UHGV virus genome: UHGV-0277313
Strand: one strand, 5' to 3'
Length of the DNA stretch: 64,000 bases
DNA from: a virus
The notes below the pieces were generated by a model. The model saw only the letters and a program-made list of their open reading frames with translations. It searched no databases and was not told where the DNA came from. The position numbers and the translations under genes were made by a program. Positions 7,589 through 47,834 of this stretch are shown here, in pieces. Numbering within the stretch: position 1 is the first letter of the stretch; each line of letters opens with the position of its first letter.

Positions 7589-7644
7589 TTAAAAAGTCTT
7601 CCACGACAGCTCGAATAGATTAAAAACACACTACAAAAAAGAAC

Positions 7645-7683: not shown

Positions 7684-7698
7684 TATCAACAATAAAGA

Positions 7699-8430
7699 TT
7701 ATGACCAACTATCAATCGCGTTCTTCGCTTCCTGTTTGACAGAATCATCAATCAAATCATCGTCTTCAACAGGTTGCGCTTCGGGCAGTTCACCTTCCGC
7801 TTCAGCAGAATCTTTATTTTCTTCAGGAACTGCAGGTGTCGCAACACGATCATTTGGCTGTTCTTCACGAATTTTATTCGCTAGAGCAGAACGCAAAGAG
7901 TCTTTATCATCTGCATCAACTCCAACAAATGAAGTCAAAGCTTTCAAAGGATCATGTTCTGTACCAAAATCATAGCTACGACCAACATATTCATTTACCA
8001 TTGAATTGTAAATGCTATTGAATTCCTGTAAATCATCTGATGAGAAAACATAAGAAGAATCTTCTTCTTCATTTTCCTCTTCAGGATTTTTTGTATTCGT
8101 CAGTTCAATAGCATATTCAGGAGCAACCCAAGGTTTACCATCAACTATTGAAGCTGATAAAACACAAAACGCGCCATCCTCTAACTCTTTATAAAGGATG
8201 ACATCATCACGAGTGACACCGTTATCATCAACAACAATATCACCACTCATTTCCCAACCTTCAGGTAAGGCTGGTTTAACCAAAGTGTTCATAAACGCTT
8301 CAAAATCTGCAGCATTTTTAAACACTGATTCATATAAGCTTTCAGATTCACCATAAACACTTTCAATGAAGGCTTTACGGCATTCAGCTGTCGCTTTTCT
8401 TGATTCATAAAGGATCATAATATTCTCCAA
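7699..8430 (-). CDS. hypothetical acidic protein
   Basis: 243-aa ORF, acidic C-terminal half. Confidence 0.5.
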   Translation of the reverse strand: MENIMILYESRKATAECRKAFIESVYGESESLYESVFKNAADFEAFMNTLVKPALPEGWEMSGDIVVDDNGVTRDDVILYKELEDGAFCVLSASIVDGKPWVAPEYAIELTNTKNPEEENEEEDSSYVFSSDDLQEFNSIYNSMVNEYVGRSYDFGTEHDPLKALTSFVGVDADDKDSLRSALANKIREEQPNDRVATPAVPEENKDSAEAEGELPEAQPVEDDDLIDDSVKQEAKNAIDSWS

Positions 8431-8435
8431 TTACA

Positions 8436-9200
8436 TTAAATTAAAGATTCACCATCGCAATAAGCAAATGCTGGACGATCACAACCATCAAACATCAAAC
8501 GTAAATTATTTCGAGGAGTTAAGATAATCTTAACAATCTCGCCATTTGAGCCTTCAGGTCTATTATGACGAAAATCGGAACAACACTTCTTAAAAGCTTT
8601 TTTTAAATTGGCATTGATAGGATTTGCACACAAAGCTTCACATTCAGCTAAAGTGATTTCTTTTCCATCAATGTCTGAACATTCTTCTTTTGGTTCAGGT
8701 GCAGATTCTAAAGAAACATCAACATCTTCAATAGAATTTGCTAATTGATCGGCCTGTGCAAAAGAATCTTGTGCATCTGCCATAAGATTATCCATTTCAG
8801 AAAAATCAACAGCGTTATCACTATCATCTTCCTTTAATGAACCATCAGTTTCTTGAGCGGCAACGACAGGTGCAGCAGGTTCTGGTTTCAAACCAATCTG
8901 CTGATCTGCCAATAACGCACCTTGCATATACACAAAGTTTGTTAAATCAACAACGCCATTAATAATCTCTGCTAGCGGCGTCAAATCACTAAACCCAGCT
9001 GCAGACCACGTATCACGCAAATGTTCCATATCAATTCTAATTTGCGCTAAAGAATGAATAACGCTGTCAATTTCATGAGGAATTTCAGACATCTTTGCTT
9101 CTTTTAAAGCAACAAGAGCCTGTTTGCTTTCCGCAAGCTTTTTCTTCTTTTCAGCCTTTTTAACAACTGATTCGAAGAGGGTATCAAGATAATTGACCAT
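8436..9200 (-). CDS. hypothetical protein with Cys-rich C-terminus
   Basis: 254-aa ORF; C-terminal CEALC...CCSDF...CDRPAFAYCDGE. Confidence 0.5.
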   Translation of the reverse strand: MVNYLDTLFESVVKKAEKKKKLAESKQALVALKEAKMSEIPHEIDSVIHSLAQIRIDMEHLRDTWSAAGFSDLTPLAEIINGVVDLTNFVYMQGALLADQQIGLKPEPAAPVVAAQETDGSLKEDDSDNAVDFSEMDNLMADAQDSFAQADQLANSIEDVDVSLESAPEPKEECSDIDGKEITLAECEALCANPINANLKKAFKKCCSDFRHNRPEGSNGEIVKIILTPRNNLRLMFDGCDRPAFAYCDGESLI

Positions 9201-9277
9201 TACTTTCTCCGCAATATTTAAAGCAGTTCAAAAAATAGAACGAAAAAATTTAAAAACCTTTTAAAAAACAGTTTAAA

Positions 9278-9670
9278 TCATTTCGTTGATAATTCTGTTG
9301 AAATTAATAAAGCAATAGGCGTTATATTTTGAATAATTCCAGTATATACATCCATTAAAGCTGCACCGCCAATATTTTCAACTTCGGATGCATTTTTAGG
9401 CATCTGTTCATAAAATGAATAAAAAGAATTTAACATACTTAAAGCTTGAGGAGATAAAACAACCACTTTATCTTCCAACGCTTTAACTAACGAATTGTTA
9501 AAACGAATTGAGGCTGTTACAGCTTCAGTCATTTTATTCATCAATTCACTTGTATAGTCGTATGGTTTACAGTTGCTTGAATATTGAAAATAATCATACA
9601 ATAATTCTAAAGCTTCTTCACTTTTAGCAAGTAATGCTTCTTCTTTTTCATTCAAAGGCATTTTCATCAT
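9278..9670 (-). CDS. hypothetical protein
   Basis: 130-aa ORF. Confidence 0.45.
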   Translation of the reverse strand: MMKMPLNEKEEALLAKSEEALELLYDYFQYSSNCKPYDYTSELMNKMTEAVTASIRFNNSLVKALEDKVVVLSPQALSMLNSFYSFYEQMPKNASEVENIGGAALMDVYTGIIQNITPIALLISTELSTK

Positions 9671-9977
9671 CCACTTCTAGTTTTTCTTTGATTTTGTTAA
9701 GGTTGCCATCATTATAAAAGTTTAATAAAATTTTGCCTAAAAAAGGAATATAATCTTTTTTAAGTAAAATATCTTCAGTCGTATAATAATTGTTTTTTCG
9801 AATAACTTTTGTAATTTTCAAACTATCACCAACTACAGACAAAATAACTTTAGATTTATTTGCATCTGTAAATGAAATTCCTTCTGGAATAGTAACCTTG
9901 TTAACAGCTTCTGTTTTGACATCTTCTTGAAGCTCAACTTGTCTTTTCAAAACATCCTTAAATATACTCATTAGCAT
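9648..9977 (-). CDS. hypothetical protein
   Basis: 109-aa ORF overlapping next gene by 23 nt. Confidence 0.45.
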   Translation of the reverse strand: MLMSIFKDVLKRQVELQEDVKTEAVNKVTIPEGISFTDANKSKVILSVVGDSLKITKVIRKNNYYTTEDILLKKDYIPFLGKILLNFYNDGNLNKIKEKLEVDDENAFE

Positions 9978-33573: not shown

Positions 33574-34536
33574 TTAAGATTGCGTTATTTTATTGAAACT
33601 CTTGAAGTATAATTTTAAGAAATGTCTGTACTCAATTCTCTTTTTATACCTATCAGAATACGAATCAGGCTTCATATTATCAGGATCTTCGTCGCCATTT
33701 AATTTAATTATTGTAACTGTTCCATTATAAAATTTTCTTAAGGTTTTGTAATTATTTATAATTTCAGCTCGTGAAACATCCCCGTCGAAACTAAACGAAA
33801 TTTCCGTTGGGTTTTTCGACGCGATAATTCTTGCTTGCGAATCAGCTAATACTTTACCAAAAATAGATACTGCAGTCACATCTTCAGGTGTATTACGGTT
33901 AGCTGCAATACCCGAAAAAACACCTTCAGTAATAATTACTTTACCATTTGTTGATACATTCTGAATATTCCAAACAGCAAATGATTTGTGACTTCCTTGA
34001 GGATTGATATATTTTGCTTCAGGGTTTTCTGATACATAATCACGTGCAACTAAATAAACAACGTTATTATTCAAATCAAACGTCGGAACAATAATCCTTC
34101 CCCGATATCTTCCTTGCCCAATACGGATATCGTATTTTTTAATTTCTTCAAACGTTATATTTCTTGAACGCAGATACTCAACTGCATTAACAAATGAACG
34201 ATCTATTTTTACTGAAATATTGTCCAAATCAATCAATTCAGCTTGAATTAACAGACCACTCGGTGATGTATATTTTATACGCTGTTTAGTATCAATGTTG
34301 TCTAGTTTATATCTTAATAATGCACCACCATTTACATAACCTTGTAATAGCTGATCTACTCTTCCAGACCACCCACATCGATAACAATGAAATACGTTTT
34401 TTTCAAGTGATAAACTTAATTTATAATCATCATAACGTTTACCTAACATTTTACAATTTGGACAATGTGTCACATATTGATCGACATTCGATGTTAAGCT
34501 TACATCTCTCAAACTTTCAACGCGTACATCACACAT
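33574..34536 (-). CDS. DNA primase (gp61-like: zinc ribbon + TOPRIM)
   Basis: CPNCK...HCYRCGWSG zinc ribbon; TOPRIM-like IITEGVFSGIAANR...FSFDGD; directly downstream of DnaB-like helicase as in T4 41-61. Confidence 0.65.
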   Translation of the reverse strand: MCDVRVESLRDVSLTSNVDQYVTHCPNCKMLGKRYDDYKLSLSLEKNVFHCYRCGWSGRVDQLLQGYVNGGALLRYKLDNIDTKQRIKYTSPSGLLIQAELIDLDNISVKIDRSFVNAVEYLRSRNITFEEIKKYDIRIGQGRYRGRIIVPTFDLNNNVVYLVARDYVSENPEAKYINPQGSHKSFAVWNIQNVSTNGKVIITEGVFSGIAANRNTPEDVTAVSIFGKVLADSQARIIASKNPTEISFSFDGDVSRAEIINNYKTLRKFYNGTVTIIKLNGDEDPDNMKPDSYSDRYKKRIEYRHFLKLYFKSFNKITQS

Positions 34537-35408
34537 TATTTAACACCATTAGCAGCTTTTTTCATTTCCTTAACGTCATACGGCTCACATTCTTTCACTT
34601 GATTAGCCGCTTTATCAAAGTTTACATACACAGTTGTATTTGTTTTACCACGACGGGCTTTAGCAACATATAATCTCATTTTACCATTGTCAGACTCTTC
34701 ACGAGTTTGGTTTAATGTAACAATGCCATATGCCACATGCGCTTTTCTTGATGAATCAGCTAACATGTCTTGCGATGCCACTTCATTGTCTTCAGTGTTC
34801 CATGCAGCCTTTCCTAACTGTGAACCTGTAACAACAGGACAATTAAATTGGTCAGCTAACGCCTTCAAGTCATAAAAAATTGTACCCATTTCTTCATATG
34901 TACTTTCAGATGACCGTCGCGTTTGTTTGTTCGGTAACATTAAATCTGCATAGTCTACAATAATTAAACCAGGTTCAAAATTTTCCAAAGAATGTAACTT
35001 CGTCAAATATGTTCTCAAATGATTAGCAGATACTGTTTTATTAGAATAATAAATAGTCCTTACATTAGGTGCCCAATATTTAATTTTCTGCACACGCTGT
35101 TTGTATTTTTCAATTTGTGATTCATCCAATAAATCTCTCATTGACATACCAGTTGAACAGGAAATGATATTTGATAACACTTCCTTTTCAGACCACTCAA
35201 ACGAAAAATACACAACCGGGCGTCTCTGAAACATTGCCTGATATGCCAAAAAGCTCAAGAACTTACTTTTTCCACGACCAGGCGCTCCGCAGTTTTTACT
35301 GTAAAAACAATGACTTAGCTCGAAGTTGTGATACTTATTATTCACCGTCAAATTGTAAACAGGCACCTTTTCATCAAGGTGAATGCGTTTTTTATTTACT
35401 AATTTCAT
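34536..35408 (-). CDS. gp41/DnaB-like replicative helicase, C-terminal fragment (split-intein Int-C + RecA-like ATPase domain)
   Basis: MKLVNKKRIHLDEKVPVYNLTVNNKYHNFELSHCFYSKN (Int-C) then CGAPGRGKSKF (Walker A) and DnaB-like ATPase fold; ATG at 35408 with AAGGAAG RBS (track start 35411 is TTG). Confidence 0.8.
   Translation of the reverse strand: MKLVNKKRIHLDEKVPVYNLTVNNKYHNFELSHCFYSKNCGAPGRGKSKFLSFLAYQAMFQRRPVVYFSFEWSEKEVLSNIISCSTGMSMRDLLDESQIEKYKQRVQKIKYWAPNVRTIYYSNKTVSANHLRTYLTKLHSLENFEPGLIIVDYADLMLPNKQTRRSSESTYEEMGTIFYDLKALADQFNCPVVTGSQLGKAAWNTEDNEVASQDMLADSSRKAHVAYGIVTLNQTREESDNGKMRLYVAKARRGKTNTTVYVNFDKAANQVKECEPYDVKEMKKAANGVK
35292..35408 (-). mobile_element. split-intein C-half (Int-C, 39 aa) of helicase
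   Basis: DnaE-Int-C-like sequence ending ...HCFYSKN followed by +1 Cys. Confidence 0.75.
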
Positions 35409-35518
35409 CAATTACTTCCTTACTTAAACCCAACTTCAGAACATAATCCAAATCGTTTTTGTATAAAAACTTCAGTGATGTTATCACAAAATCAGACAGT
35501 TCGTCAACCTTTAATGTT

Positions 35519-36475
35519 TTAAAATTCATCATCTTCCGACAAATCTTCCGCTTTTTTATATGCAACACCTTCTGACCATATAACTTTTTCATCACCTTTT
35601 TTTGGATTTGTAATTCTAAATTTATGATCAGGTGTACATTTAATTGTATACCCATTATCAAAAGTTAATTCGATCAATTCGTCTGTATCTCTAGTTTTCC
35701 ATACATTATAAATATCAGTTTCGAAAGAGTTTCCATTCTCATCAACTGAATAGGCTTTTTTATCTTTAAAGTTGTTTACCAAATCTTTGATTTCGATGAA
35801 ACCTTTATTTGTTTTCACTTTTGTATCACCTGTTAAACAGAATACATACAGTTCACCTTTTGCAATGCCGCCACCAAAAGCGTCATCTAATGAAGGAATG
35901 CCTGTTGTGAACATATTATCTTTGCCATAACTGTCACGTAACATTTGAGGTAATTCATCAAGTGAACTAACCAAATCTAACCCAAGATTTGTTCCTGCAC
36001 CAACAGACAATGCATCATCGATAATAGATACGGCTTTTTCGTAATCATTTGTTTTATCATACATATCGACCAATTTACCAATTGCATCACGCATTGCAAC
36101 GCTTTTAGCAAAATCTAAAGCTTGATCTTTTATGTACTGTGCGTCTTCAATAACAGTTGTTGTTAAGCTACGAATCACTGAAGCAAAATTTTCTTGTTCG
36201 ACAATAGGAATTGCATATTTACTCGTATAATTATTCAATTCAGTCAACAAAACAGATTCAGTCGGTTTTGTATGATACTGTTCGTAATATGAAATAATCC
36301 ACTGACAAATATTTTGCAAATAGACATTATCAAAAAAAGAAGGTTTAATTAATTCCACGCCAACTGTTGATAAATAGGTGAAATCTTGAAATAATAATGC
36401 AACAATCTTTTTCTGCATTTCAACTTCAAAATTATATGTTGTATCCTGTACAACTTCTTCGTTTTCATTGTCCAT
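35519..36475 (-). CDS. gp41/DnaB-like replicative helicase, N-terminal fragment (DnaB N-domain + split-intein Int-N)
   Basis: DnaB N-terminal-like domain; ...GGGIAKGELYVF then CLTGDTKVKT...IKCTPDHKF... to stop. Confidence 0.8.
   Translation of the reverse strand: MDNENEEVVQDTTYNFEVEMQKKIVALLFQDFTYLSTVGVELIKPSFFDNVYLQNICQWIISYYEQYHTKPTESVLLTELNNYTSKYAIPIVEQENFASVIRSLTTTVIEDAQYIKDQALDFAKSVAMRDAIGKLVDMYDKTNDYEKAVSIIDDALSVGAGTNLGLDLVSSLDELPQMLRDSYGKDNMFTTGIPSLDDAFGGGIAKGELYVFCLTGDTKVKTNKGFIEIKDLVNNFKDKKAYSVDENGNSFETDIYNVWKTRDTDELIELTFDNGYTIKCTPDHKFRITNPKKGDEKVIWSEGVAYKKAEDLSEDDEF
35522..35839 (-). mobile_element. split-intein N-half (Int-N, 106 aa) of helicase
   Basis: CLTGDTKVKTNKGFIEIKDL...TIKCTPDHKFRI...; Cys codon position verified (aca at 35837-35839 on + strand). 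Confidence 0.75.
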
Positions 36476-36514
36476 AACTTTTTCCTTTTAAAAGAGAACT
36501 ACGGTTACCTTATA

Positions 36515-38479
36515 TCAACCTATTCTCGATTCACCCATTTTTTTAATCAACATTTTAAATTGTTCTTCATTTATTTCTGGAATTCCTTCGTTTTCTAGAT
36601 GTTGTTTCCTTTCTCTAGTCCAAGACTCAAGATATGGATGTCCTTTGTCATTAAAATCTACAAACACTGAACAGTTCAATCCTTTATCTTTTCTTCTGGT
36701 TACGCGGCCGATTCTTTGAACATGTGAAATAATATTTTTTCCAGCATCCATCAAGATACCAACATCAAATTCAGGAACATCAATACCTTCATTAAAAACA
36801 ACGTTTCCAACAATTACACGATATCCTTCTTCACGAATTGCCTTTTTAATTGTTTCAGCATTTCCCTTGCGTTCGACAACAACATGTTGAACAATACCTT
36901 TTTTTGTTTTTTCAGTCGCGTCAATAGCTTCATAAATCGTATTACCACCACACATAAATAAAGCTTTAATTCCTTTATCCTTCATTTCACGTACTATTGC
37001 TTTTCCATGTTCAATACGATTAACCATAACCAAAATTTTTAAATTATTCTTGTAACAAAATTCAATACAACGATATGCTGCTTCATTCCTATTAAAACTT
37101 TCTGCAACATATTTCTTATATACATCTGTGCAAGATTTACAAAACACAAATGATTTTGGTGCATAATTAATATAATATGAATAAACTAAAGACGAATATC
37201 CTTTATCACGAAGATACTTTGATGAAATATAATAAAACGAATTACCAAACAACGCTTTTAAAACAATATCATCAACACATTGCCCACCTTCTTTAAAAGG
37301 CGATGCTGTAAACCCAATTAAATATTCAGGATTCGCAACCATTGCGGGTATTGCAATGCTCTGACAGCTGCCGTGATGACATTCATCAACTATAATAGCT
37401 CTTACACTTTTCAGATATCTCATAATTTTTGGATCGTTACGTTTCACCATATTCCAAACTAAATTATTAGTTGAAACAATAATATCTGAATTATCCAAAA
37501 CAGGGTTTCTGTTAAGATATTCAATTTTACGGTCAATACCACGAAGTTTAGCACGACCTTCAATTTGATTTAAAATATTTGTTCGATTATTAATAACTAA
37601 AATTTTCCCATCAATTAATTTAAACAAAGATGCAATGATTTCAGTTTTACCAGAATTATGTACAATCACACCGTTGCTTAATGCAAAATTATGCAAATCA
37701 CAATCAACCTCAATATCATATACAGGAATAGGGTCTACATAATGTTCAGCAAATACTTGCTCAACAACACGACTCCCATAAACACCAGCTACAGGTGATT
37801 CAGCTAAAAGATTGATAGCTTCTACATATTTTCCATTACTTAAAAGGAAAAGATGATCGGGCGTGCATTCAACTTTAACACCATCATTAAATTTAATCTT
37901 CAATGTATCTTTAACATATTTTGACAAATGTGCCGAAACAATTGAATGAAACTTTCCATCTGAACAAAAAACAGACTTTCCATTAAAATTCATACTTAAT
38001 GAACTTAAAGTTTCAAAACCAGTATTTGTTAAAATTAAAGTATCGCCAACAAAACAACCTGTCGCAGCTTCACAGATACCATGTTTATTAATCAAACATT
38101 TTAAAGTACCAATCAATTGATGTTCACGTACTTCAAAACCAGGTGAAGCTAGTGCCATTTCATTATACGCTTGCCTAACCTTTTGCATTGTTGACTTTAC
38201 ATCAATATCAATTACTTTACGCTGATCGATTACAGTTTCAAAATGAAAATACGGTAAAATCAAATCATCAACACAACCTGATTGTACATATAAAGAAGTT
38301 TTTGTATTTTCAACTTCCATATACAATGTAATCAAACTCTGCCCATCAGCTGACAGTAATGTCAAACGTTTTTTTATACGGTTAATAAAATCAGCATCTT
38401 CATCTGAAATTAAAGACCACATCGATTTCGTAATCGTTAACATTTTATTTCTCTCAATTAGACTGTGTTTGAAAAACAA
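36515..38479 (-). CDS. SF2 (DEAD/DEAH-like) DNA helicase with a mini-intein inside the Walker A motif
   Basis: Extein ...KHGICEAATG / SGKTEIIASL (AxxGSGKT); DECHH motif II; helicase C-terminal motifs (TASPFKEGG, HRIGRVTRR). Confidence 0.7.
   Translation of the reverse strand: MFFKHSLIERNKMLTITKSMWSLISDEDADFINRIKKRLTLLSADGQSLITLYMEVENTKTSLYVQSGCVDDLILPYFHFETVIDQRKVIDIDVKSTMQKVRQAYNEMALASPGFEVREHQLIGTLKCLINKHGICEAATGCFVGDTLILTNTGFETLSSLSMNFNGKSVFCSDGKFHSIVSAHLSKYVKDTLKIKFNDGVKVECTPDHLFLLSNGKYVEAINLLAESPVAGVYGSRVVEQVFAEHYVDPIPVYDIEVDCDLHNFALSNGVIVHNSGKTEIIASLFKLIDGKILVINNRTNILNQIEGRAKLRGIDRKIEYLNRNPVLDNSDIIVSTNNLVWNMVKRNDPKIMRYLKSVRAIIVDECHHGSCQSIAIPAMVANPEYLIGFTASPFKEGGQCVDDIVLKALFGNSFYYISSKYLRDKGYSSLVYSYYINYAPKSFVFCKSCTDVYKKYVAESFNRNEAAYRCIEFCYKNNLKILVMVNRIEHGKAIVREMKDKGIKALFMCGGNTIYEAIDATEKTKKGIVQHVVVERKGNAETIKKAIREEGYRVIVGNVVFNEGIDVPEFDVGILMDAGKNIISHVQRIGRVTRRKDKGLNCSVFVDFNDKGHPYLESWTRERKQHLENEGIPEINEEQFKMLIKKMGESRIG
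37655..38056 (-). mobile_element. mini-intein (134 aa) in SF2 helicase P-loop
   Basis: CFVGDTLIL...VECTPDHLF...VYDIEVDCDLHNFALSNGVIVHN then +1 Ser. Confidence 0.75.
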
Positions 38480-38559
38480 CGTACCACATCTAATGCTATA
38501 TTGTCAATACAAAATGCAATAAATATTATAATTTATACATCATTTTTCAATAAAATAAC

Positions 38560-39873
38560 TCACTTATCTAAACTATTATAAATTTTATATAAATTTACCA
38601 TAGATTTAGATGACTTGAGTCTAAAAACTTCAGAATCAAAAGATTCTAAAGAACGTCTATATTTCACTTTAGATGTTTTTGTTATATCAAACAGTTCTTT
38701 CCAATTCTTATAAACCCAGCTTGATGATTCCTTCCATAGGTTGAACAAACTGGTTTTGTCTATAAGCTCTGGATAGAACTGACCTTTGATATATTTGAAC
38801 ATTGCTCTACGGGCAATTTCCAAACTTGCTGCTATTGGATCTGGTGCTTCATTACATATGTTTCCAATGAATGAAGAATAAACAGGGTTGACTTCGACGA
38901 AGTCTATTTTGTTTAGAAGAAAGTGCTTTCTTAAAGCAGAAACCAGTGCTTCATGTTTCCATTTATTCTTCGTTAATCTATTGAATGATTTACCTTTTCC
39001 TGTATTCCCAGTTTTGAAAGACAAATCTTCAATGCCAAATTTACCAACTTTATAATACTTACATTTCTGGATGATATCTTTAGCTATCTCTTTAAGCTCA
39101 AAGATTTGTTTGTTATTCTGGTGTTTACTTTTAGCATCATTTGAAGATTTGTGTAAGTTCTTTGTGAAATATGACAAATCATACTGCTCTTCAAGCAAAA
39201 TCTTTCTCTTATCACCAGTCCATTTAGAAATAGAAAATCCAATATAGTTTGGATTCATATCTATAGCACCAACTATATTTGGATTTCCAACATAATTGGA
39301 ACAATAGATTTTGGAATCATCAAAGGTTATGCAGATTCTATCCAACTTTAATTCAACACTAAAGTTAGATAACTTCTGCTTACATTGTTCTTCAAGGTTG
39401 ATTAATTCATATAAATAATTCTTATGTAAAATAGGCAATTTCAAGTTGATATGTTTTGATTTAGAAAACTTAAAGATTATCTGGTTATTCGAAATATCCA
39501 ACTGGAATTTACGGTTTCCGCCTTTTGACGTTTCACCTTGTGAATAACCCCCTAAAAGCCTATTTTCTTTGAAAATATCTTTATCTAACTTATGTTTTAA
39601 TCTTTGATAAAAAGAAAATTTGCCACCGAAAATAACCTTTTCTTTATTGGTTAAAAATATGTAATTTGCTTTCTTAATAGCACACTGAATAAACCAAGAA
39701 TCCGAAGGTACATTTGATAAACTTTTAGAAAGTAATCTAATGTCTTTTTCAGATTTGGAATCTTTATATCTGTTGAAAGCATATCTTACCATATTAGACG
39801 ACTTCCGAATTTCATCTTTGATGAAGCTTCGGTCGTCATCTGAACATGTATATGGTAAGTTAATCGTTTTCAA
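38560..39873 (-). CDS. TnpB/OrfB-like RuvC-fold nuclease lacking the zinc finger (paralog 1)
   Basis: RuvC-I AIDMNPNYIGFS, RuvC-II FGIEDLSFK, VEVNPVYSSFIGN (cf. TnpB VDPRYTSQ) and RuvC-III-like NEAPDPIAASLEIARRA (cf. DRDVNAAINIARRG); no CxxC pairs between II and III. Confidence 0.6.
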   Translation of the reverse strand: MKTINLPYTCSDDDRSFIKDEIRKSSNMVRYAFNRYKDSKSEKDIRLLSKSLSNVPSDSWFIQCAIKKANYIFLTNKEKVIFGGKFSFYQRLKHKLDKDIFKENRLLGGYSQGETSKGGNRKFQLDISNNQIIFKFSKSKHINLKLPILHKNYLYELINLEEQCKQKLSNFSVELKLDRICITFDDSKIYCSNYVGNPNIVGAIDMNPNYIGFSISKWTGDKRKILLEEQYDLSYFTKNLHKSSNDAKSKHQNNKQIFELKEIAKDIIQKCKYYKVGKFGIEDLSFKTGNTGKGKSFNRLTKNKWKHEALVSALRKHFLLNKIDFVEVNPVYSSFIGNICNEAPDPIAASLEIARRAMFKYIKGQFYPELIDKTSLFNLWKESSSWVYKNWKELFDITKTSKVKYRRSLESFDSEVFRLKSSKSMVNLYKIYNSLDK

Positions 39874-39943
39874 ATTTAAAACCTTATCAAACTTTTTGTC
39901 TTTATTTGTTATAAATTATAAAAAATTAAAAATCAAGACTTGT

Positions 39944-40720
39944 TTAAAAAATAATATAAGCGTAATTAGATAAACCTGTTGCTTCAAACATGTATGCAGT
40001 TTCCTGTGTATCTTCCAATTTACAAACAGGTGTGTACTTAAAAGTTGTTCCTTCTCTATCACGTGTATATACAGAAATACCTTGATTCAGATACATGATG
40101 ACTTCCTGACGAGATTTAAGAAATTTCTTTTTATATTTAGGTACAGACATTACAGAAGCAATTTCTTCATTTGTAAAACCATACACTTTCATCAAATCAC
40201 CTAATGTGACAGGGCAATCTTCTTTAGGATTATTTTGTTCAAATTTAGCAATCACATTTTTTAAAGACTTCAACAATTCATTTTTTTCAGATGACAACTG
40301 AACTCTTTTTTCATCAATGATTACTTCTTTTTCTTTCTTTTTAGGCAAACTATTAAATGTTGGTTTAACTTCTTTAGCCTTTTCTGTCTTTTTGGGTTTC
40401 GACTTTTTAGTCTCAACCTTCTTAACAGCGACCTCTTTTTTCTTTTCAGGTTCATGTTTTTTAGCTTCAGCTTTTTCTTTAATAGCTTTAGCTGGGCCAT
40501 ACCCTTCAGCATATCCCCATTTAGTTAATGCAACTTTAGCAGCACGATAACGATTTGCTTCAGTTACAACAATTGAATTACCACAATCATTACACAAAAT
40601 AGTTTGAGTAATTGATTTATCTTTATTCTTTACATATTTAGCAGTGATGTTATGTTTTCCACATTTAGGACAATTACCCGCCTGAACATTCAACGCTTCA
40701 CTATCTTTTCTTTTAGCCAT
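39944..40720 (-). CDS. zinc-ribbon protein with lysine-rich (histone H1-like) linker
   Basis: CPKCGKH...CNDCGN zinc ribbon; KEKAEAKKHEPEKKKEVAVKKVETKKSKPKK repeat-like basic region. Confidence 0.45.
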   Translation of the reverse strand: MAKRKDSEALNVQAGNCPKCGKHNITAKYVKNKDKSITQTILCNDCGNSIVVTEANRYRAAKVALTKWGYAEGYGPAKAIKEKAEAKKHEPEKKKEVAVKKVETKKSKPKKTEKAKEVKPTFNSLPKKKEKEVIIDEKRVQLSSEKNELLKSLKNVIAKFEQNNPKEDCPVTLGDLMKVYGFTNEEIASVMSVPKYKKKFLKSRQEVIMYLNQGISVYTRDREGTTFKYTPVCKLEDTQETAYMFEATGLSNYAYIIF

Positions 40721-40837
40721 TTAAAAACACCTTTAAAAGTTAAATATCAAATATGCTTTATCATTACATAAATTTTGCTAAATAGCAACAGAAAAGTTCT
40801 TTATTTATTTGTTGTTGACAAAGGAATATGAAAACAA

Positions 40838-40981
40838 ATGAATGAACTTGATTTGCTGATTGAAGAATTTCAAAAAGAAATTAGAAATAAACTTGAAGAA
40901 AACAATCAAAAAACAAACTTTGCTAAATTGTTTGAAGATTTCATGATGACTATTGATAAAAAGGCGTCTAGCTTCAATTAA
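40838..40981 (+). CDS. possible small protein (47 aa)
   Basis: ATG preceded by AAAGGAA; helical charged peptide MNELDLLIEEFQKEIRNKLEENNQ...; a 61-aa antisense ORF overlaps on the minus strand. Confidence 0.2.
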   Translation: MNELDLLIEEFQKEIRNKLEENNQKTNFAKLFEDFMMTIDKKASSFN

Positions 40982-40993
40982 ATACCTCAAATA

Positions 40994-42355
40994 TTAAAAC
41001 TTATTAACATCTTGCATAAAGAAATTAACGAATCTTAAAGTTTTAGACTGAAAGACTCTTTCATCAAGAGGAAACCTATATTTAAATTTAGATTTCTTTA
41101 ACTCGGAATGAATCTGTTGCCAATTCACAAAACCAACAAAGCACTTTACTTCTTCCAACGAGTGTTTTACTTTGTCTAATAATGATTCTGTTAAATCTGG
41201 AAAGATCACATTCTTCGTTTTGGCTTTAATCTTCTGTATGTATTGAAGATTAAACTCATAGCATCTTCTACTGATTTCAATAGAAGATAACACCATGTCT
41301 GGTAATTCTAAATCTCTATAGACTAGATTACCAATAGTGGATGAATATTGTGGAGATATTTCTATAAACTTAATTCCATAAATATTGCATCTCTTTTTAA
41401 GATTATTGACTAATTTATTTCTACACCAATTATTATTTACAAGTCTATTGAAATTCTTTCCTTGTTTATTATCCTTGGACTTAATAGACAAATCCTCAAC
41501 ACCAAAACATTCGCAATGATAATGTTTTGCTATATCAACAAGAAACTTGGCTACTTTCAATGTTTCATATTGACGTTTATTGTTAAGATATTTTCTTTCC
41601 TTTGATGTTGAAGGTAATTTTAATTTCTTGAGTTTATACTCAATATCATTGATATTCTTTAATGATACTACACCTGAATTTATAGCCTTTAATTCATCAG
41701 ATGATTTCCAGTCTACGACTGACCAACCAACATAATTTGGGTTCATATCGATAGAAAATATTCTGTTTGATATTGGTTTAAATATCTTTTCTGACAATAT
41801 CATTTCATCAAATGAAATATATACAAATTTTTTATCTAATTTGTATGTGATTGGAGTATCTTTCAACTGTTGATGAATATATAATTTTTGTAATACTTTA
41901 ATTCTATTACCAACACCAATAAGTTTTAAGTGTATTCTGTTTTTAATTGTTGGACTAAAGTTGACTGAATAGCAATCTTCAGATAATCTGAAGAATCTAT
42001 TTCCCCTATAGTTTCTATCACCAATTGAACACAAAGATACTAATCTTTTTTCTTTAAATTCTTCATTTGATATGTTGTGTCTAAATCTTTGTTCGAATAG
42101 ACGTTTGCCACCAAATAAAACAGTTTCTTCTTTCTTCAACAAAAATGAAGCATCTTTTACACAAGATTGTCTGAACCATGATTTCATTAAATCAAGATTA
42201 TTGAATTGTAAATGTTTACAAGCAGTTTCAGATACGCCATCTTTTAATCTATTATAAAACAAATGAAGAAGATTATTATATTGCCTCTGATAATCAGCTA
42301 TCAACTGATTATCAGATTCTTTTTCTGCAATATACTTAATCTTCAATGTTATCAT
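40994..42355 (-). CDS. TnpB/OrfB-like RuvC-fold nuclease lacking the zinc finger (paralog 2)
   Basis: SIDMNPNYVGWS, FGVEDLSIK, IEISPQYSSTIGN, RDLELPDMVLSSIEISRRC; collinear with paralog 1. Confidence 0.6.
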   Translation of the reverse strand: MITLKIKYIAEKESDNQLIADYQRQYNNLLHLFYNRLKDGVSETACKHLQFNNLDLMKSWFRQSCVKDASFLLKKEETVLFGGKRLFEQRFRHNISNEEFKEKRLVSLCSIGDRNYRGNRFFRLSEDCYSVNFSPTIKNRIHLKLIGVGNRIKVLQKLYIHQQLKDTPITYKLDKKFVYISFDEMILSEKIFKPISNRIFSIDMNPNYVGWSVVDWKSSDELKAINSGVVSLKNINDIEYKLKKLKLPSTSKERKYLNNKRQYETLKVAKFLVDIAKHYHCECFGVEDLSIKSKDNKQGKNFNRLVNNNWCRNKLVNNLKKRCNIYGIKFIEISPQYSSTIGNLVYRDLELPDMVLSSIEISRRCYEFNLQYIQKIKAKTKNVIFPDLTESLLDKVKHSLEEVKCFVGFVNWQQIHSELKKSKFKYRFPLDERVFQSKTLRFVNFFMQDVNKF

Positions 42356-42425
42356 TAAATAATTCCTTAACTTACCTATTATTCTACATTATCATCTTTT
42401 TAAGAAAAATACAAGAAAGATTTAT

Positions 42426-42635
42426 ATGATCTTATACAAAATTCCTTTTACCAACAAAGCTTCATATGAAACAATTTCAAAAGTGTTTGATGATAAAGAA
42501 AATAGCAACAGGTTTTTACAACCAACATGTGAACATATTGAAGATTTCTTAAAAGATGAAGGTGTTGAAGGCCTTGATGCTGATTCTCAACAAATATGTA
42601 TTGGCTGGGAATTTAAACTAGAAGATATTTTGTAA
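42426..42635 (+). CDS. small hypothetical protein (69 aa)
   Basis: + strand ORF with AAGAAAGA RBS-like purine run; followed immediately by strong terminator. Confidence 0.35.
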   Translation: MILYKIPFTNKASYETISKVFDDKENSNRFLQPTCEHIEDFLKDEGVEGLDADSQQICIGWEFKLEDIL

Positions 42636-42640
42636 ACAAT

Positions 42641-42670
42641 AAAGGCGGGAATTGAACCCGCCTTTTCTTT
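42641..42670. terminator. bidirectional rho-independent terminator
   Basis: AAAGGCGGG-aattgaa-CCCGCCTTTTCTTTT between converging ORFs. Confidence 0.75.
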
Positions 42671-43056
42671 TAATCGTTACGCCCCAAATCAGAATCAATA
42701 CCCATTGCTTCAAGGGTTCGCATTTCTTCTTTTTTACGTAAATACTCTTCAGTCAACTTTTGTTGTGCCTGTTCCCATTCTTCACGAGCTGTTGCTGAAG
42801 TTTTCCATTCTTCCGCTGAACATGTATAAAAGGCTTGTGGATGTGGTTTATCAAGTGTGTATTCAACAGGGAATACCATTTGACCGCGTTCTTCATCCCA
42901 CATAGCGGCTGGCATTAAATTACACATACAGCCTGGAACTGACAAGATTTCGTCAACAGATTGAAAATCGGCTGTTTTCAATCCCATTTCAACATACGTC
43001 CCATCTTTTTGACGAATCTTTGATTTACCTTTTTCTTCTTTTAGTTCAATAGACAT
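42670..43056 (-). CDS. hypothetical protein
   Basis: 128-aa ORF. Confidence 0.45.
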   Translation of the reverse strand: MSIELKEEKGKSKIRQKDGTYVEMGLKTADFQSVDEILSVPGCMCNLMPAAMWDEERGQMVFPVEYTLDKPHPQAFYTCSAEEWKTSATAREEWEQAQQKLTEEYLRKKEEMRTLEAMGIDSDLGRND

Positions 43057-43080
43057 TTAGATCCACTTTCATTCTAGAGT

Positions 43081-44118
43081 TTAAGACAATTGTTCAATGA
43101 TTTTATCAACAGTAATTTCTTTCATTTCTTCATCAGAAGGAACGTCTTCCAACAAGGAACAATAATCAGAAAGATATTGTTTTAAATCACAATTTAATTC
43201 CTTGATATGTTTAGGTTCAGTTTTTAAAGCTAATTCATAACACAACGGAATCATTTTTAAAGGCAATCCTAAACAATAACTATTAATAAAATTTTCTATA
43301 CGTTTAACATGTTGAAATCCGTTAAATTCAAATTTTGTATATCTAGTTACTCCACTTTTAAGTTCCAATAAAGCAAACATTTTAGGTGACTTGCTAGGTA
43401 ATATATTAAACATGTTATTCTTTAATAAATCATGTTTACTCATGAACTTCAGCAGATAATTCATATACGATATTTTACCACCACGCGGAAGATTCTTTCC
43501 TTCAGTCCATAAACGATACCATATACGAATGCAAGGCAAATCTTGTTTACCTGTTTCTGAAATAACATCAGTTTTCCAATTTACACGTTTATTTGAATAT
43601 AATAAACCATCAATTAAATTGACTTGTTTTCTTTCAGACAACGCAGGGCCGTCATAATACAATTTAACCTTCCTAATAATTTCAGGCATTTCAGTTTTAT
43701 CAACTTGCTGATCCGCGCTTCTTTTTGCCGTATAACGAACACGAACAGGTTTGCGAATATCAATTAAAGGCAAACCTTCTCTTTCCAAAACTTTATTCGC
43801 TTCTGGAATTAAATCATAGGCTGTATAGCTTTTACCTTTATATAAATAATGTCTATATCCGTTTGGTGTTATCTTGTTATATAATAGATTTAAAACAAAT
43901 CTAAAAGTATCGCTCGTTTCCCAATCAAGAATTTCATCTTTTACACAAAAGAAATCCATATAAAAATTATACAATTGAGAATTATTACCACGCTGATATT
44001 CAATCTGCATAGGCTTTAAATCATACTTTACAGCTAAATCTGAAATAGGGATACCAAAGGCTAATTCCTTTAATAACTGATCCCTTAAATCATCAGTTAA
44101 TAGAGATGCTTTAGGCAT
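43081..44118 (-). CDS. hypothetical protein with possible N-terminal HTH
   Basis: 345-aa ORF. Confidence 0.5.
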   Translation of the reverse strand: MPKASLLTDDLRDQLLKELAFGIPISDLAVKYDLKPMQIEYQRGNNSQLYNFYMDFFCVKDEILDWETSDTFRFVLNLLYNKITPNGYRHYLYKGKSYTAYDLIPEANKVLEREGLPLIDIRKPVRVRYTAKRSADQQVDKTEMPEIIRKVKLYYDGPALSERKQVNLIDGLLYSNKRVNWKTDVISETGKQDLPCIRIWYRLWTEGKNLPRGGKISYMNYLLKFMSKHDLLKNNMFNILPSKSPKMFALLELKSGVTRYTKFEFNGFQHVKRIENFINSYCLGLPLKMIPLCYELALKTEPKHIKELNCDLKQYLSDYCSLLEDVPSDEEMKEITVDKIIEQLS

Positions 44119-44199
44119 GAAATAGAACTCATCATTAGATCAATTAGGATTTACAATTACCTAAAGAACAATTACGAATTCATCTTAAAGAAATTAATT

Positions 44200-45525
44200 C
44201 TACAATTTTGCCTTAAAGACGGCATCTTTTATTTTATTATAAATAGATTGAAATTGTTCAACAATCCCCATAGTATGATTTAATTGTTTGTTGCTTGTTC
44301 GACCAAACATAATATATTGAACGGCATCTTTAAAGGCACCTGAACGATAATGAATATTCTTGCACCACATCTTAAAATTCTGTGTAACAACATGAATTAC
44401 AGTTGAATATTTATAATTCGTACTCAAAGCAATTTTAGTAATGTTTTCATATAGATATCTTAAATCTGCAACAATAACATCATCTAAAACATCACCATCA
44501 AAACGAAAACCTAATAATTGGCAATTTTCTAGAAATTCATTGAATGTACGCATACAAGTAAAGTTATGTATATTTGGATGTGCATCAACGAAATTTTGAA
44601 TTGTCGGATCTAATCCTTCTGTAACAAATTCAACAGGAATCGTTCTTTTCTGGCCACCAATTAATAAATTTTTCTTCAGTCTTTTGTGCTCTTTTAAAGT
44701 ACGTTGCATTGCAACCTTTTCCAAACGTTTACTATGTTTTGTAAACAATTTGGCAATATTCACATCAGGAATCAATAATGAAGGAACATAATTCGCTTCA
44801 TCAAATGTTTCAGGCTCACCTTCACATGTTTTAATACCCAACCCTTTACGAGTACCATCACCATGTGTTTTACAAAAATAGTGATATGCCACTAAAACAT
44901 TGATAATATTACCCCATTCTAATGAACCAAAACCAAATTCCTTATCGTCAAACCAACCATTTTGTGTTTGAATTGCCATGATGTCATAATCAATTGCATC
45001 TAATCTGGCAAGAATAATAGCTAAAGCGCAATCATGTGTATGAAAATCTTGCACCTTAACTAGTTTTTTATGTACAAATTCTTTTAATTCCAAAAAGACA
45101 TGATTCACTAAATTTGGGTTTTTAGCTAATATATCAATTGCATCTTCAGGTTTATATCTATTCAATGCTTCAATATCATATTGAACAACATTACCTTTAA
45201 TTACCTTACTTTTTTGTACTTTATATGTGCCAAATTGATCCGCCAGTTTTTTAAATACACTTCTCTTATTTTTAATTTTTCCACCACGATCAATACACCA
45301 ATCCATATTGGCAATCTTCATCTTTTCTGGTGCATAATATTGTAAAAATGTCGGGGTGAACCAACCGTAATGACTAGACATCGGCAACCCTGATTTAACA
45401 TACTTCTTCGTGAACTGACGGCCACCTAATTTGTTCATAGTTGTTACTGCAATTTTAGACAAGTCTTTTTTCTTATAAAAGACTATTTCTTCACGTAACT
45501 TTTTTAGAACATTAATAGGTAACAA
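44200..45525 (-). CDS. hypothetical protein (441 aa), first gene of minus-strand block, adjacent to origin-like region
   Basis: Long ORF; no motif recognised. Confidence 0.5.
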   Translation of the reverse strand: MLPINVLKKLREEIVFYKKKDLSKIAVTTMNKLGGRQFTKKYVKSGLPMSSHYGWFTPTFLQYYAPEKMKIANMDWCIDRGGKIKNKRSVFKKLADQFGTYKVQKSKVIKGNVVQYDIEALNRYKPEDAIDILAKNPNLVNHVFLELKEFVHKKLVKVQDFHTHDCALAIILARLDAIDYDIMAIQTQNGWFDDKEFGFGSLEWGNIINVLVAYHYFCKTHGDGTRKGLGIKTCEGEPETFDEANYVPSLLIPDVNIAKLFTKHSKRLEKVAMQRTLKEHKRLKKNLLIGGQKRTIPVEFVTEGLDPTIQNFVDAHPNIHNFTCMRTFNEFLENCQLLGFRFDGDVLDDVIVADLRYLYENITKIALSTNYKYSTVIHVVTQNFKMWCKNIHYRSGAFKDAVQYIMFGRTSNKQLNHTMGIVEQFQSIYNKIKDAVFKAKL

Positions 45526-45619
45526 TGTAGACCAACCTGTTTATCTAGATTTTTATCATAGAACACACTATAGTCTTGTTAAAAAACTTTGTCAACGATC
45601 TTTTTAAAAAAAATCAAAT

Positions 45620-45860
45620 CCTCTACTATATATACTCTTTTATTATATATATATATAAAGATCTGATCATCAAAGTGAATTTCATATCAGAGAAGTGAAC
45701 ATAGATAATATATTTAGATCAGATCAGATCTTTAAGATCATAGAAGAAAAAATAAAAAATCATATGATCACAAAATCAGATCTTATTAAAAAATAAAATG
45801 ATAGAAATATCATTAACTTGAAAAGATCTAAAGATGAATAAAGATTTTAAGATCTCTATA
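45620..45860. promoter_or_regulatory. origin-like element: (TA)n unwinding-type tract followed by a cluster of ten GATC sites in AAGATCW heptamers
   Basis: tattatatatatatataa then agatctgatcat ... tagatcagatcagatctttaagatcat ... atgatcac ... atcagatctt ... aagatcta ... aagatctc read directly; located at divergent strand-switch. Confidence 0.5.
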
Positions 45861-45892
45861 TTTTTAAATACTTAAGATATTAACATTTCATA

Positions 45893-46010
45893 GGGACTTC
45901 GTTCGCTTCGCTTCGCAGGGCTACGCTCACTTCGTCCCTGATTTGTTTCTTTCTTGTATTGTCCTGGGACCCGCCCCTGTTCACTACGTTCACAGAGCCG
46001 ACCCAACCTA
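45893..46010. other. GC-rich (about 58% GC) 120-bp island with CTTCG/TTCAC short repeats in AT-rich intergenic region; possible structured RNA or DNA-protein site
   Basis: gggacttcgttcgcttcgcttcgcagggctacgctcacttcgtccc...gtcctgggacccgcccctgttcactacgttcacagagccgacccaacc; GGGAC/GTCCC pairing possible; not a tRNA cloverleaf by inspection. Confidence 0.35.
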
Positions 46011-46340
46011 TTACTTAAATATTTTAATAAATAAAATAAATAAATAAATATATTCCAAAACTGATTCTCTTCGAAGAAAAGTCAATTGGTGATCATAAAG
46101 CTTAAAAGGTTTTACAGATAAAAAGGAAAATGTTAAAAAGAAAATAGGAATCCCAAAGCTAAAGGATAGAAATATTACACCCATATCCCCGCCAAAAAAT
46201 TTCCGAACGAATGAAATGAAGTTCGGAATAAACAAATATCCTAGCATTCGAATTTTTTGATATTTTAAAAATCAATATCAAATCTAAATTTAATGTTCTT
46301 AAAAGAAAATGTACTGTTTCAATGAATAGGAAATAGGTAA

Positions 46341-47834
46341 ATGAAGATTACATATGGTGATCCAAACGAATTAGAAATTGAAGAAGGCAGTTTTACGAAT
46401 ATCGAAGCTATTGATATTCCTGAAGGTAAATGTTTGTTTAGATTATTCGTAAACAAACCTAAAGATGCCAAAATTGTACTTAATGATATTGAGCAGGATT
46501 CTGTTTTAGTTGATGAAATGGATGTTGTACACTGGAATGTTACTTGTGATGGATACAAATCTTCTGTCGGTGAATTCCAGGTTATCAATTCTATTGGGTT
46601 TACTATTTCCTTATTACCTGAAAGAAAAAAGAAAAAGAGAATTAAAAATCCGTATATTAAATGGTCGGTGAATAATAAATACGGGTATCAAGTTGATATT
46701 ATTGATTTATCTGATCAGGAAGATTGTGATTTACCACTACCTTCACCTGAAGGATATGATAATACATATTTGTATGCATTTGGTGGAAATGTATATTGGA
46801 AAGAAATCAAACTTGAGAATCTATTAACGCCAAAAGTATCAGATTCAGGAAAGTATTTAACTTTTGATTCTACTAAAGGATTTTCATTTAATTCACCAAT
46901 TCCTGTATTGCCTGAAGATGAAACAGGTGTCTTTATATTAAAGAATGAAAACGGAAATTTATATTGGGCTAAAGATAATGCTCTTCCTGATTTCCCTGTC
47001 GAACAATTAGGCAATAAACAATATTATATGTTGACATATAAAGATGGTAAAATGAAATGGACTTTAAACCCGTTCACTTTACCAAAACTTCCTGATGAAA
47101 CATATTTTAATGGTGACAAGTTTGTTTTGTCATATAGAAACGATGAAACATTCTGGTCTGATGGTACTGTGTATTGGAAAGATATTAAAGGTACTATAGC
47201 TGATCAACCTGAAATTAGTGAAGATTTAAATAAAGCACTTCAAGATGCTAAAGATATGTCTGAAAAGGCAAATAATAATGCTACAGACGCTTTAGCAAAA
47301 GCTGATAAAGCACTGGCATGGGAAGATTCATTTGGTGTTGAAGCTCCTGGATTTGTCTTTATTGATGGTAAAATAAAAAATGAAGATGGATTCTATTATC
47401 CTGATGGAAGAGATATTGCTCAACTTCATACAGATTTTGATATTTTTAAAAACAGGTATTCAACATTTGAAAAATATGTTATTGCACAAGTTCAAATGAG
47501 ATTAACTTCCCCTGACTATTCACAATTAAGCAATGTCGAATATGTTATGGGTAACTTCTTTTATAATTCTAAAAAAAGATATTTACATATTGAATCGTTT
47601 GAAGTTGGTTCAACTATAGAAGTGTTTAAACCTTTATATAATGAAGATTCAGGATCGGTACAAGGACCTGATTTATCAAGTGGACCAATTATGACGATTT
47701 ATAAAAATGTGTCAGGTGTTGGTGATATTCGTATGCTTGAATTAACTACAGGGTTCTTTTATAAAGTATCAAATAAAAAATCGTTTGAATTAAAATATGT
47801 CGGAGAATTACCCTATGGCGAATACCCAGGTTGA
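46341..47834 (+). CDS. hypothetical virion-module protein (497 aa)
   Basis: First ORF of + strand structural block; AGGTAA RBS. Confidence 0.55.
   Translation: MKITYGDPNELEIEEGSFTNIEAIDIPEGKCLFRLFVNKPKDAKIVLNDIEQDSVLVDEMDVVHWNVTCDGYKSSVGEFQVINSIGFTISLLPERKKKKRIKNPYIKWSVNNKYGYQVDIIDLSDQEDCDLPLPSPEGYDNTYLYAFGGNVYWKEIKLENLLTPKVSDSGKYLTFDSTKGFSFNSPIPVLPEDETGVFILKNENGNLYWAKDNALPDFPVEQLGNKQYYMLTYKDGKMKWTLNPFTLPKLPDETYFNGDKFVLSYRNDETFWSDGTVYWKDIKGTIADQPEISEDLNKALQDAKDMSEKANNNATDALAKADKALAWEDSFGVEAPGFVFIDGKIKNEDGFYYPDGRDIAQLHTDFDIFKNRYSTFEKYVIAQVQMRLTSPDYSQLSNVEYVMGNFFYNSKKRYLHIESFEVGSTIEVFKPLYNEDSGSVQGPDLSSGPIMTIYKNVSGVGDIRMLELTTGFFYKVSNKKSFELKYVGELPYGEYPG

Follow-up and report, generated by a model that had tools for sequence, protein, structure and literature searches.

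Two TnpB-only insertion sequences without zinc finger, each with a predicted omegaRNA, interrupt replication genes of a huge phage

Two related genes for TnpB-like nucleases (tnpB-A and tnpB-B) lie on either side of a gene for a zinc-ribbon protein (M) inside a replication gene block of the virus genome UHGV-0277313, and the question raised by this locus is whether the three genes form one system. The window, i.e. the whole stretch of 64,000 nucleotides that was analysed, has ~30% GC and carries all three on its minus strand. A first-pass annotation, made from the sequence alone, had delimited these open reading frames (ORFs) at coordinates that are confirmed here (A, 437 residues; M, 258 residues; B, 453 residues; Table 1), and had regarded A and B as domesticated or programmable nucleases with M as their possible partner. 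Comparison with related loci leads to a different view of the arrangement. A and B are read here as separate selfish insertions in the replication genes of a huge phage, neither domesticated nor partners of M, because relatives of the locus exist that are free of TnpB, M is clipped by A, and a neighbouring 175-residue gene is destroyed by B.

Four relatives of the locus (L046-L049) all have the order 128-residue gene, 173-175-residue gene (on the opposite strand), M and helicase, without TnpB. All four are syntenic with window positions 34001-47701, and in L046 the synteny extends over this whole interval apart from elements A and B; the other three (L047-L049) are relatives reached through homologs of M. 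A megablast search of the region against phage records gave no match, and no relatives were found by way of the neighbouring 345-residue gene. M itself matches PF14354 weakly (21.7 bits against a cut-off of 28.6), and this family is recorded for its 60%-identical homologs P0007 and P0008. The linker of M is rich in lysine and glutamate, and M is known from 11 proteins of a small phage group, always just upstream of the helicase. No homolog of M was found beside other members of the TnpB family, nor outside this small phage group. The idea of M as a partner was therefore abandoned: M occupies the same locus without TnpB in the four relatives and never adjoins other family members. Likewise, the seeming unit of two nucleases flanking a zinc-ribbon protein arose by chance, when two separate insertions came to lie around a resident gene. 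A composite transposon, in which A and B together mobilise M, was also considered and rejected, as A and B are only 32% identical and have different ends, and M stands at this place in the relatives without TnpB.

The insertion of element A can be read against its empty site, which is ...TTATATTATT^GAAAA(A/T)T... in L046 and L049 (in L049, ...TTATATTATT^GAAAAATGATATATAAAC...). At the window junction TTATATTATT is followed by the start of the element, TTTTAAAC, and the end of the element, GAGTTATTTTATT, is followed by the flank GAAAAATGATG / GAAAAATGATGTATAAAT. The position of the junction is ambiguous within the 5 nt TTATT; this aside, the insertion of A is precise and has no target-site duplication. 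In two copies in other contexts (L006 and L021) homology to A ceases at the same ends, and conservation among the A copies ends exactly at 38549. The element entered M two codons ahead of its stop, such that the proteins of the relatives end in ...YIIE(N/K) and M of the window ends in ...YIIF. The target TTATATTATT agrees with the right-end terminus of A itself, TTATTTTATT, at 9 of 10 positions, and the independent copy L006 likewise has TATTATT 5′ of its left end. The segment predicted to serve as the guide of A differs from the empty-site flank of L049 by 2 mismatches in 20 nt. A 12-nt inverted match between the flank of A (38526-38537) and its left end (39910-39921) was judged to be due to chance; one of its arms is flank DNA, and the empty-site counterpart of that arm in L049 differs at one base (TATAAACTATAA versus TATAAATTATAA).

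Element B lies within the 175-residue gene, and its junctions were mapped against the intact copy of this gene in L049. Remnants of the gene flank the element on the plus strand, the N-terminal one having 93% identity to L049 (tblastn, E 2e-22), and ~190 bp of the gene are absent between the junctions. The right flank of B is the antisense of codons ~40-46 of this gene, and copies of B diverge directly after ...GGTATTTAAT. Two copies in unrelated contexts, L004 (85%) and L005, lose homology to B at the same ends.

Both elements have close copies elsewhere. On the 313-kb contig of L046 there are copies of A (83%) and B (85%), which are separated by ~100 kb and have unrelated neighbourhoods. In IMG/VR, 40+ loci of the family were found on huge-phage contigs, with a maximum of four per contig. 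By tblastn, Prevotella Lak megaphages were found to have 1-5 copies per genome, and the family was also detected in Campylobacter Firehammervirus phages, of which CP220, WX1 and F379 have copies annotated as 'ISCaje4 TnpB' at different sites. Among species-representative genomes, family members were confined to 11 contigs of metagenome-assembled genomes (MAGs), some of them evidently from huge phages. The closest copies of B in that set, L051 (85%) and L052 (78%), come from contigs assigned to Gastranaerophilales/Melainabacteria MAGs; this may point to the host of this phage group of ~313 kb and ~30% GC, unless it is an artefact of binning. Two copies (L053 and L054) share a 360-kb 'Bacilli' MAG contig that is probably a mis-binned huge phage. 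Seven further tnpB ORFs (L031, L033, L034, L036, L041, L043 and L044; ~4001-5300) are broken by TAG only, 5-8 or more times each and never by TAA or TGA, pointing to TAG-recoded (code-15-like) phages with an ORF adapted to that code. In L003, L021, L029, L032, L039 and L045 tnpB is apparently frameshifted instead.

The transposon family to which the elements belong is indicated by their relatives. A serine-recombinase TnpA of ~200 residues, with a MerR-like N-terminus and a resolvase catalytic domain, is encoded directly upstream of tnpB in WX1 (L002), L018, L024, L040 and L030, which include both sub-clades, and it is the only TnpA seen beside family members. No homolog of this serine recombinase was found by tblastn in the 64-kb window (the search was not aimed at Y1 transposases), so that for this type of transposase the earlier remark that TnpA is missing is borne out. 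The same annotation had noted no obvious terminal hairpins; no terminal inverted repeats were found at the element ends. Because of the serine TnpA in the relatives and the lack of both terminal inverted repeats and target-site duplication, the family is assigned to the IS607 type and the window copies are taken to be TnpB-only derivatives. The filing of ISCaje4 under the IS608 subgroup in 2010 appears doubtful. Neither element has a GG terminus: A has the flank ...TATTATT^G and the right end ...TTTTATT, and B the flank ...GGAATT and the right end ...TTTAATT. TATT is found at the left junction in several further pairs of copies. The sub-clades of L026, L027, L035 and L053-L055 have right ends in ...ATCTGG or ...GTCTGA, resembling the GG terminus of IS607, which suggests a shift of the end and target core between sub-clades of the family (A/T-only versus CTGG/CTGA). 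The match between the target of A and its right end would suit a recombinase by which similar core sequences are paired.

The first-pass annotation had seen no common sequence in the 3′ ends of the two genes and no evident canonical omegaRNA, and had pointed to 38480-38560 and 40721-40993 as possible sources of RNA. Both statements need revision. A conserved structured RNA overlaps the 3′ ends of both ORFs, so that the RNA lies inside the genes and not in those regions, and 40838-40975 is a gene remnant on the other strand. Synonymous-codon identity rises from ~0.45 to ~0.70 over the last ~70 codons in the A-like clade (12 loci) and from ~0.55 to 0.75-0.83 over the last ~90 codons in the B clade. 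For 16 loci RNAalifold returned 39 pairs, and 17 of these show compensatory double changes; at pair 65-90, for example, UA, GC, AU and CG are all found and the pairing is never broken. In this alignment 96.6% of cells are paired, against 30-43% with slid partners, and the covariation score of 0.334 (0.03-0.07 when slid) was reached in 0/500 shuffles. Moreover, a covariance model of 135 nt (R1), built without the sequences of the window and run over the whole window on both strands with filters off, has its best and second-best matches at the 3′ ends of tnpB-A and tnpB-B (Table 1), with the third-best match at 16 bits. In other sub-clades, the 3′ ends of ten additional copies are matched by the model as well. 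The structure has 6-8 helices, extends over 135-190 nt or more and contains many G-U and U-G pairs (136-153, five GU and five UG; 35-40, 16 GU). Such pairs are A-C mismatches on the other strand and their frequency therefore places the constraint on the sense-strand RNA. The 260-nt 3′ segment of A has a minimum free energy of -75 kcal/mol against -43.3 +/- 3.7 for shuffles (z -8.5). In that of B the conserved helices are retained together with the invariant UGGAAG loop, and covariation within the B clade is seen for its strongest helix. Conservation among copies ceases ~10-20 nt past the stop codon, like a boundary between scaffold and guide. An Rfam scan of 38000-43000 at E <= 1 returned no family, and a promoter scan found fewer sigma-70-like sites than in shuffles and none useful for the omegaRNA or tnpB. 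Taken together, the sequence comparisons are strong evidence for a structured RNA, the predicted omegaRNA, at the 3′ end of tnpB in both A and B, up to the right end of the element.

The account of the proteins given by the first-pass annotation stands for the most part. A and B are paralogous (32% identity over their full length, E 3e-57, BLASTP), and both have the RuvC motifs IDMNPNY, FG[IV]EDLS, [IV]E[IV]xPxYSS and PDxxxxSxEIxRR. Their placement as RuvC nucleases of the TnpB superfamily that have kept the catalytic triad and lost the C4 zinc finger is upheld by TIGR01766 for B, by Foldseek and by invariance across the family. An exhaustive profile search gave 1,631 clusters (50% identity) at E <= 1e-3 and 634 at E <= 1e-30, and the full-length proteins among the best 150 clusters, at <=50% identity, make up a set of 129 representatives. 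The triad (D203, E287 and D353 in B numbering) is invariant in an alignment of 27 sequences (A5), and in the representatives D203 is conserved in 129/129, E287 in 129/129 and D353 in 126/129. The CxxC zinc finger is missing from A, B and the 27 aligned members, and two CxxC motifs occur in 0/129 representatives, i.e. the loss is family-wide. Between YSS and the RuvC-III aspartate there are 10-14 residues in nearly all 129 representatives (~13 in A and B). The same stretch of the canonical TnpB ISCaje3, from Campylobacter phage CP220, is YPSS-RTCSNCG...CEECG-FSIDRDLNASINI and has a linker of ~32 residues, in which the finger CSNC...CEEC is placed between YPSS and DRDLN. This motif comparison was used instead of hhalign, as the family profile against this single canonical TnpB was uninformative (probability 0.1).

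Profile libraries recognise the proteins in part. TIGR01766 ('TnpB-related', cut-off 32) is matched by B at 38.7 bits, above the cut-off, and by A at 19.9 bits, below it. Scores for NF040570 (guided_TnpB) and PF07282 (TNB/zinc-ribbon) were 21.9 bits against a cut-off of 100 and 14.9 bits against 26.3, the latter over the first half of the domain only. PF01385 gave no match, and B had other sub-threshold matches to Cas12b and to a PHROG 'transposase'. The recent Pfam tag PF27229 is found on some family members, and the public databases hold no name for these exact proteins. Since the family profile had no match at E <= 1 against all PDB sequences, a fold search was used. The AlphaFold2 model of B (predicted local distance difference test, pLDDT, 80.7; predicted template modelling score, pTM, 0.70) was matched by Foldseek to Cas12f (E 1.9e-8), Cas12k (E 6.8e-6), the TnpB of ISFba1 and ISDra2 (E 3.3e-5) and mimivirus Fanzor2 (E 5.2e-4), and more weakly and partially to cellular RuvC (E 7.5e-4). 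The matches to TnpB, Cas12 and Fanzor2 are near full length (~400-500 columns), consistent with a WED-REC-RuvC architecture, and the prediction thus agrees with the RuvC-type fold proposed earlier. In the model the acidic triad occupies the canonical RuvC positions, the first two residues at the ends of beta1 and beta4 and the third at the start of the post-beta5 helix. The C-terminal extension of ~90 residues has a conserved lysine, tyrosine and arginine (K420/Y426/R427).

Elements of this kind have been named before. ISCaje4 (ISfinder) was reported in Campylobacter phage CP220 by Timms et al. (2010) under IS200/IS605 'subgroup IS608', and no omegaRNA is described in that paper (PMC2853527). 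It is phage-borne and belongs to the same protein family (full-length identity of 43% with B and 35% with A); unlike A and B, its copy in WX1 has a full serine-recombinase TnpA of 202 residues upstream (truncated in CP220). Homing by TnpB and omegaRNA is described for IS607 and for TnpB-only 'IS1341-type' derivatives (Meers et al. 2023, PMC10055086; Zedaveinyte et al. 2023, PMC10690162; review, PMC13565253). A and B resemble these in the serine TnpA of their full-length relatives, the lack of terminal inverted repeats and target-site duplication, the 3′-overlapping RNA that runs to the right end, and the frequency of solo tnpB. However, canonical IS607 elements have GG ends and integrate either at GG or downstream of it (PMC13565253), whereas the target and right end of A are A/T-only, those of B are GGAATT and TTTAATT, and the proteins have no zinc finger. 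The zinc finger has been lost in several large TnpB branches, among which RIIIr-4 is a virus-enriched major clade without it (Altae-Tran et al. 2023, PMC10691335). The family studied here is likewise mainly viral and has no C4 finger between RuvC-II and RuvC-III, but it keeps the RuvC-III aspartate in 126/129 representatives where RIIIr-4, compared here by its description, has a histidine, and membership of RIIIr-4 was rejected on account of this aspartate. A survey of 59 orthologs sampled RIIIr-4 and gave no activity specific to it (PMC10278001). In overall fold (Foldseek) and in the positions of the triad the proteins are like the TnpB of ISDra2 and ISFba1, Cas12f, Cas12k and Fanzor2, and unlike these solved effectors they have no zinc-finger/TNB insertion and carry the C-terminal extension of ~90 residues, at a sequence identity of 9-15%. 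Assignment to TldR or other nuclease-dead TnpB was rejected, as the triad is conserved and the elements are mobile and multi-copy. The 'new variety' of nuclease suggested by the first-pass annotation is overstated, given the naming of ISCaje4 in 2010, the PF27229 tag and the loss of the zinc finger reported in PMC10691335. By sequence, A and B are IS607-type TnpB-only insertion sequences of a known kind, from a lineage that is zinc-finger-less, phage-borne and apparently A/T-targeting, and they involve no new principle.

We consider it highly probable that A and B are two independent TnpB-only IS607-type elements, each made of a zinc-finger-less TnpB and an omegaRNA, which would spread by RNA-guided homing. 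Each element, of ~1.4 kb, comprises a left end of ~80 nt, tnpB, and a right end ~10-20 nt past the stop codon; under this model the last ~200-240 nt of each ORF would double as the omegaRNA scaffold. Phage DNA flanking the element past its right end (~16-20 nt) would supply the guide. The complex of TnpB and omegaRNA would recognise an A/T-rich target-adjacent motif (TAM; ~WATT) together with a match to the guide, a combination expected in the uninterrupted allele only. It would then cut the element-free allele, and recombinational repair from an element-bearing genome would copy the element in. For a lytic huge phage this would mean RNA-guided homing between co-infecting or replicating genomes, and access to new sites would depend on a TnpA acting in trans or in the past.

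Several points weigh against this model. Cutting and guide use by A and B are proposed by analogy with the established behaviour of TnpB, and in the literature searched no zinc-finger-less TnpB is reported to be active. The placement of the triad in the model of B is by secondary-structure position. The right end of A, TTATTTTATT, resembles the element's own target, which makes the avoidance of self-cleavage a question. The TAM is resolved only to an A/T-rich ~WATT and is not separable from a motif that target flank, left end and right end have in common in AT-rich DNA, and for B the ~190-bp deletion has made the TAM and target irrecoverable. Regarding the RNA, the 3′ segment of B is unexceptional in stability alone (z -1.4), and a sequence-only alignment of very divergent members of the B clade gave a single helix in RNAalifold. 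The alignment of the ten further copies (A6), in which 89.5% of cells pair against 35-50% when slid and 22/30 pairs show compensatory changes, was fitted to the model, whose score is partly coding homology. Finally, the search for TnpA covers 64 kb only of a genome of ~313 kb.

Other explanations were weighed against RNA-guided homing. One of them accepts the elements as mobile and denies that a TnpB without zinc finger cuts double-stranded DNA: it could instead bind and repress (as TldR does), nick, target single-stranded DNA or RNA, or process its own RNA. In its favour, the whole family lacks the TNB/zinc-finger insertion that separates RuvC-II from RuvC-III in canonical TnpB and Cas12f, the literature searched reports no activity for zinc-finger-less clades, and orthologs that process omegaRNA without TAM activity on double-stranded DNA are known (Nety et al., PMC10278001). 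However, TldR-type repressors lose the triad, and its near-invariance as aspartate, glutamate and aspartate across the family argues for kept catalysis. The many sites and multiple copies are as expected of actively maintained selfish elements, and the conserved C-terminal K420/Y426/R427 could stand in for the missing domain. We therefore regard the loss of double-strand cleavage as unlikely.

The 3′ structure might also act at the level of DNA or messenger RNA, as a right-end site for the transposase or as a signal for stability or translation, instead of as a guide scaffold. Transposon ends are conserved for transposase binding, and the structure does lie within ~240 nt of the right end. However, serine recombinases bind duplex sites and need no such hairpins, the G-U-rich structure of 6-8 helices puts the constraint on the sense RNA, and the position, length and sharp loss of conservation match known TnpB omegaRNAs (PMC10278001), so that this role seems very improbable. 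We give hardly any credence to the original interpretation of A and B as domesticated replication-module nucleases working with M. They are co-oriented with the replication block and embedded in it, without TnpA in the window, but the same block with M and neither TnpB is present in the four relatives, and these empty sites contradict domestication. To this are added the damage done to M and to the conserved 175-residue gene, the close copies in unrelated contexts, and the absence of M beside other family members. Of the earlier alternatives 'domesticated or programmable', the second is thus probably correct in view of the conserved omegaRNA-like RNA, and the first is dropped. RNA-guided homing of two independent elements remains the preferred explanation. 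More tentatively, and with the balance of our expectation somewhat against it, the essentially phage-restricted lineage (~1,600 clusters at 50% identity) might cleave DNA in an RNA-guided manner without the zinc-finger/TNB insertion, perhaps by means of its conserved C-terminal lysine, tyrosine and arginine; in lytic huge phages it might serve for homing or for marker exclusion among co-infecting genomes, largely independent of a transposase, with an A/T-rich TAM suited to genomes of ~30% GC.

Some further features of the window lie outside the two elements, whose parts are collected in Table 1. A DnaB-like replicative helicase (34536-36475, minus strand) is encoded by two ORFs, an N-half of 318 residues and a C-half of 291 residues, divided at a split intein. 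At its end the N-half reads ...GELYVF|CLTGDTKVKT...CTPDHKF... (N-intein), and the C-half starts with a C-intein of ~40 residues ending ...FYSKN|CGAPGRGKS, by which the P-loop is restored. The same split is found in L047 and L048 (matches to Intein_splicing and DnaB_C), and the intein resembles the gp41-type split inteins of phages from metagenomes. A second helicase (ResIII/Helicase_C; 36515-38479, minus strand) has a mini-intein in its P-loop (...ATG|CFVGDT...VIVHN|SGKTE). In L046 its counterpart (6870-9749) has 959 residues and, at this position, an additional ~950 nt that might encode a larger intein containing a homing endonuclease, so that the size of this intein is polymorphic among close relatives. 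Between the convergent 128-residue gene and the remnant of the 175-residue gene, a perfect 9-bp GC-rich hairpin at 42641-42665 (AAAGGCGGG...CCCGCCTTT) has T-runs on either strand; L049 conserves it as well, and it resembles a bidirectional terminator. At ~46 kb the sign of the GC skew and the orientation of the genes flip (minus below, plus above), marking a point of divergent transcription or possibly a replication origin.

Table 1. Coordinates of elements A and B, their predicted parts and the genes that they interrupt.
Feature	Position	Strand	Remarks
Element A, TnpB-only insertion sequence (IS607-type family)	38549-39949	-	1401 bp; from empty-site junction and homology ends
Left end of A	39874-39949	-	non-coding; provides the new F-stop of M (TTT TAA, 39949-39944)
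tnpB-A	38560-39873	-	437 residues; TTG start, supported by ATG at the same position in homolog L021
Predicted omegaRNA scaffold of A	38549-38790	-	last ~230 nt of tnpB-A to right end; 5′ limit approximate
Covariance-model core of A	38620-38755	-	37.7 bits, E 1e-6; best match in window
Predicted guide segment of A, GAAAAATGATGTATAAATTA	38529-38548	-	first ~20 nt beyond right end; expected from TnpB architecture
Target / TAM-like flank of A, TTATATTATT	39950-39959	-	within gene M; in the empty sites of L046 and L049
Gene M	39944-40720	-	258 residues; Lar-like zinc ribbon, lysine-rich linker, C-terminal domain; resident phage gene, target of A
Element B, TnpB-only insertion sequence	40977-42440	-	~1464 bp, ends +/-1-2 nt; same family as A, different sub-clade
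tnpB-B	40994-42355	-	453 residues; zinc-finger-less TnpB
Predicted omegaRNA scaffold of B	40977-41215	-	from core, synonymous constraint and covarying helix
Covariance-model core of B	41047-41175	-	25.2 bits, E 7e-4; second-best match in window
Predicted guide segment of B, TGAAGCTAGACGCCTTTTTA	40957-40976	-	first flank past right end; putative
N-terminal remnant of 173-175-residue gene	40838-40975	+	residues 1-46; tblastn with intact L046-L049 proteins
C-terminal remnant of 175-residue gene	42441-42632	+	residues ~112-175; tblastn and junction mapping against L049

The annotation of this locus is thus corrected to two TnpB-only insertion sequences with predicted omegaRNAs, in place of replication proteins or a three-gene system. 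Their presence implies that M tolerates a clipped C-terminus and that disruption of the 175-residue gene is tolerated. With an RNA scaffold model, boundaries between scaffold and guide, and a real empty site, the family offers a test case for whether RNA-guided cleavage can do without the zinc-finger/TNB domain, and also for the spread of TnpB by homing in lytic phages. If these nucleases are active, their A/T-rich TAM would widen the targeting range of miniature editors.

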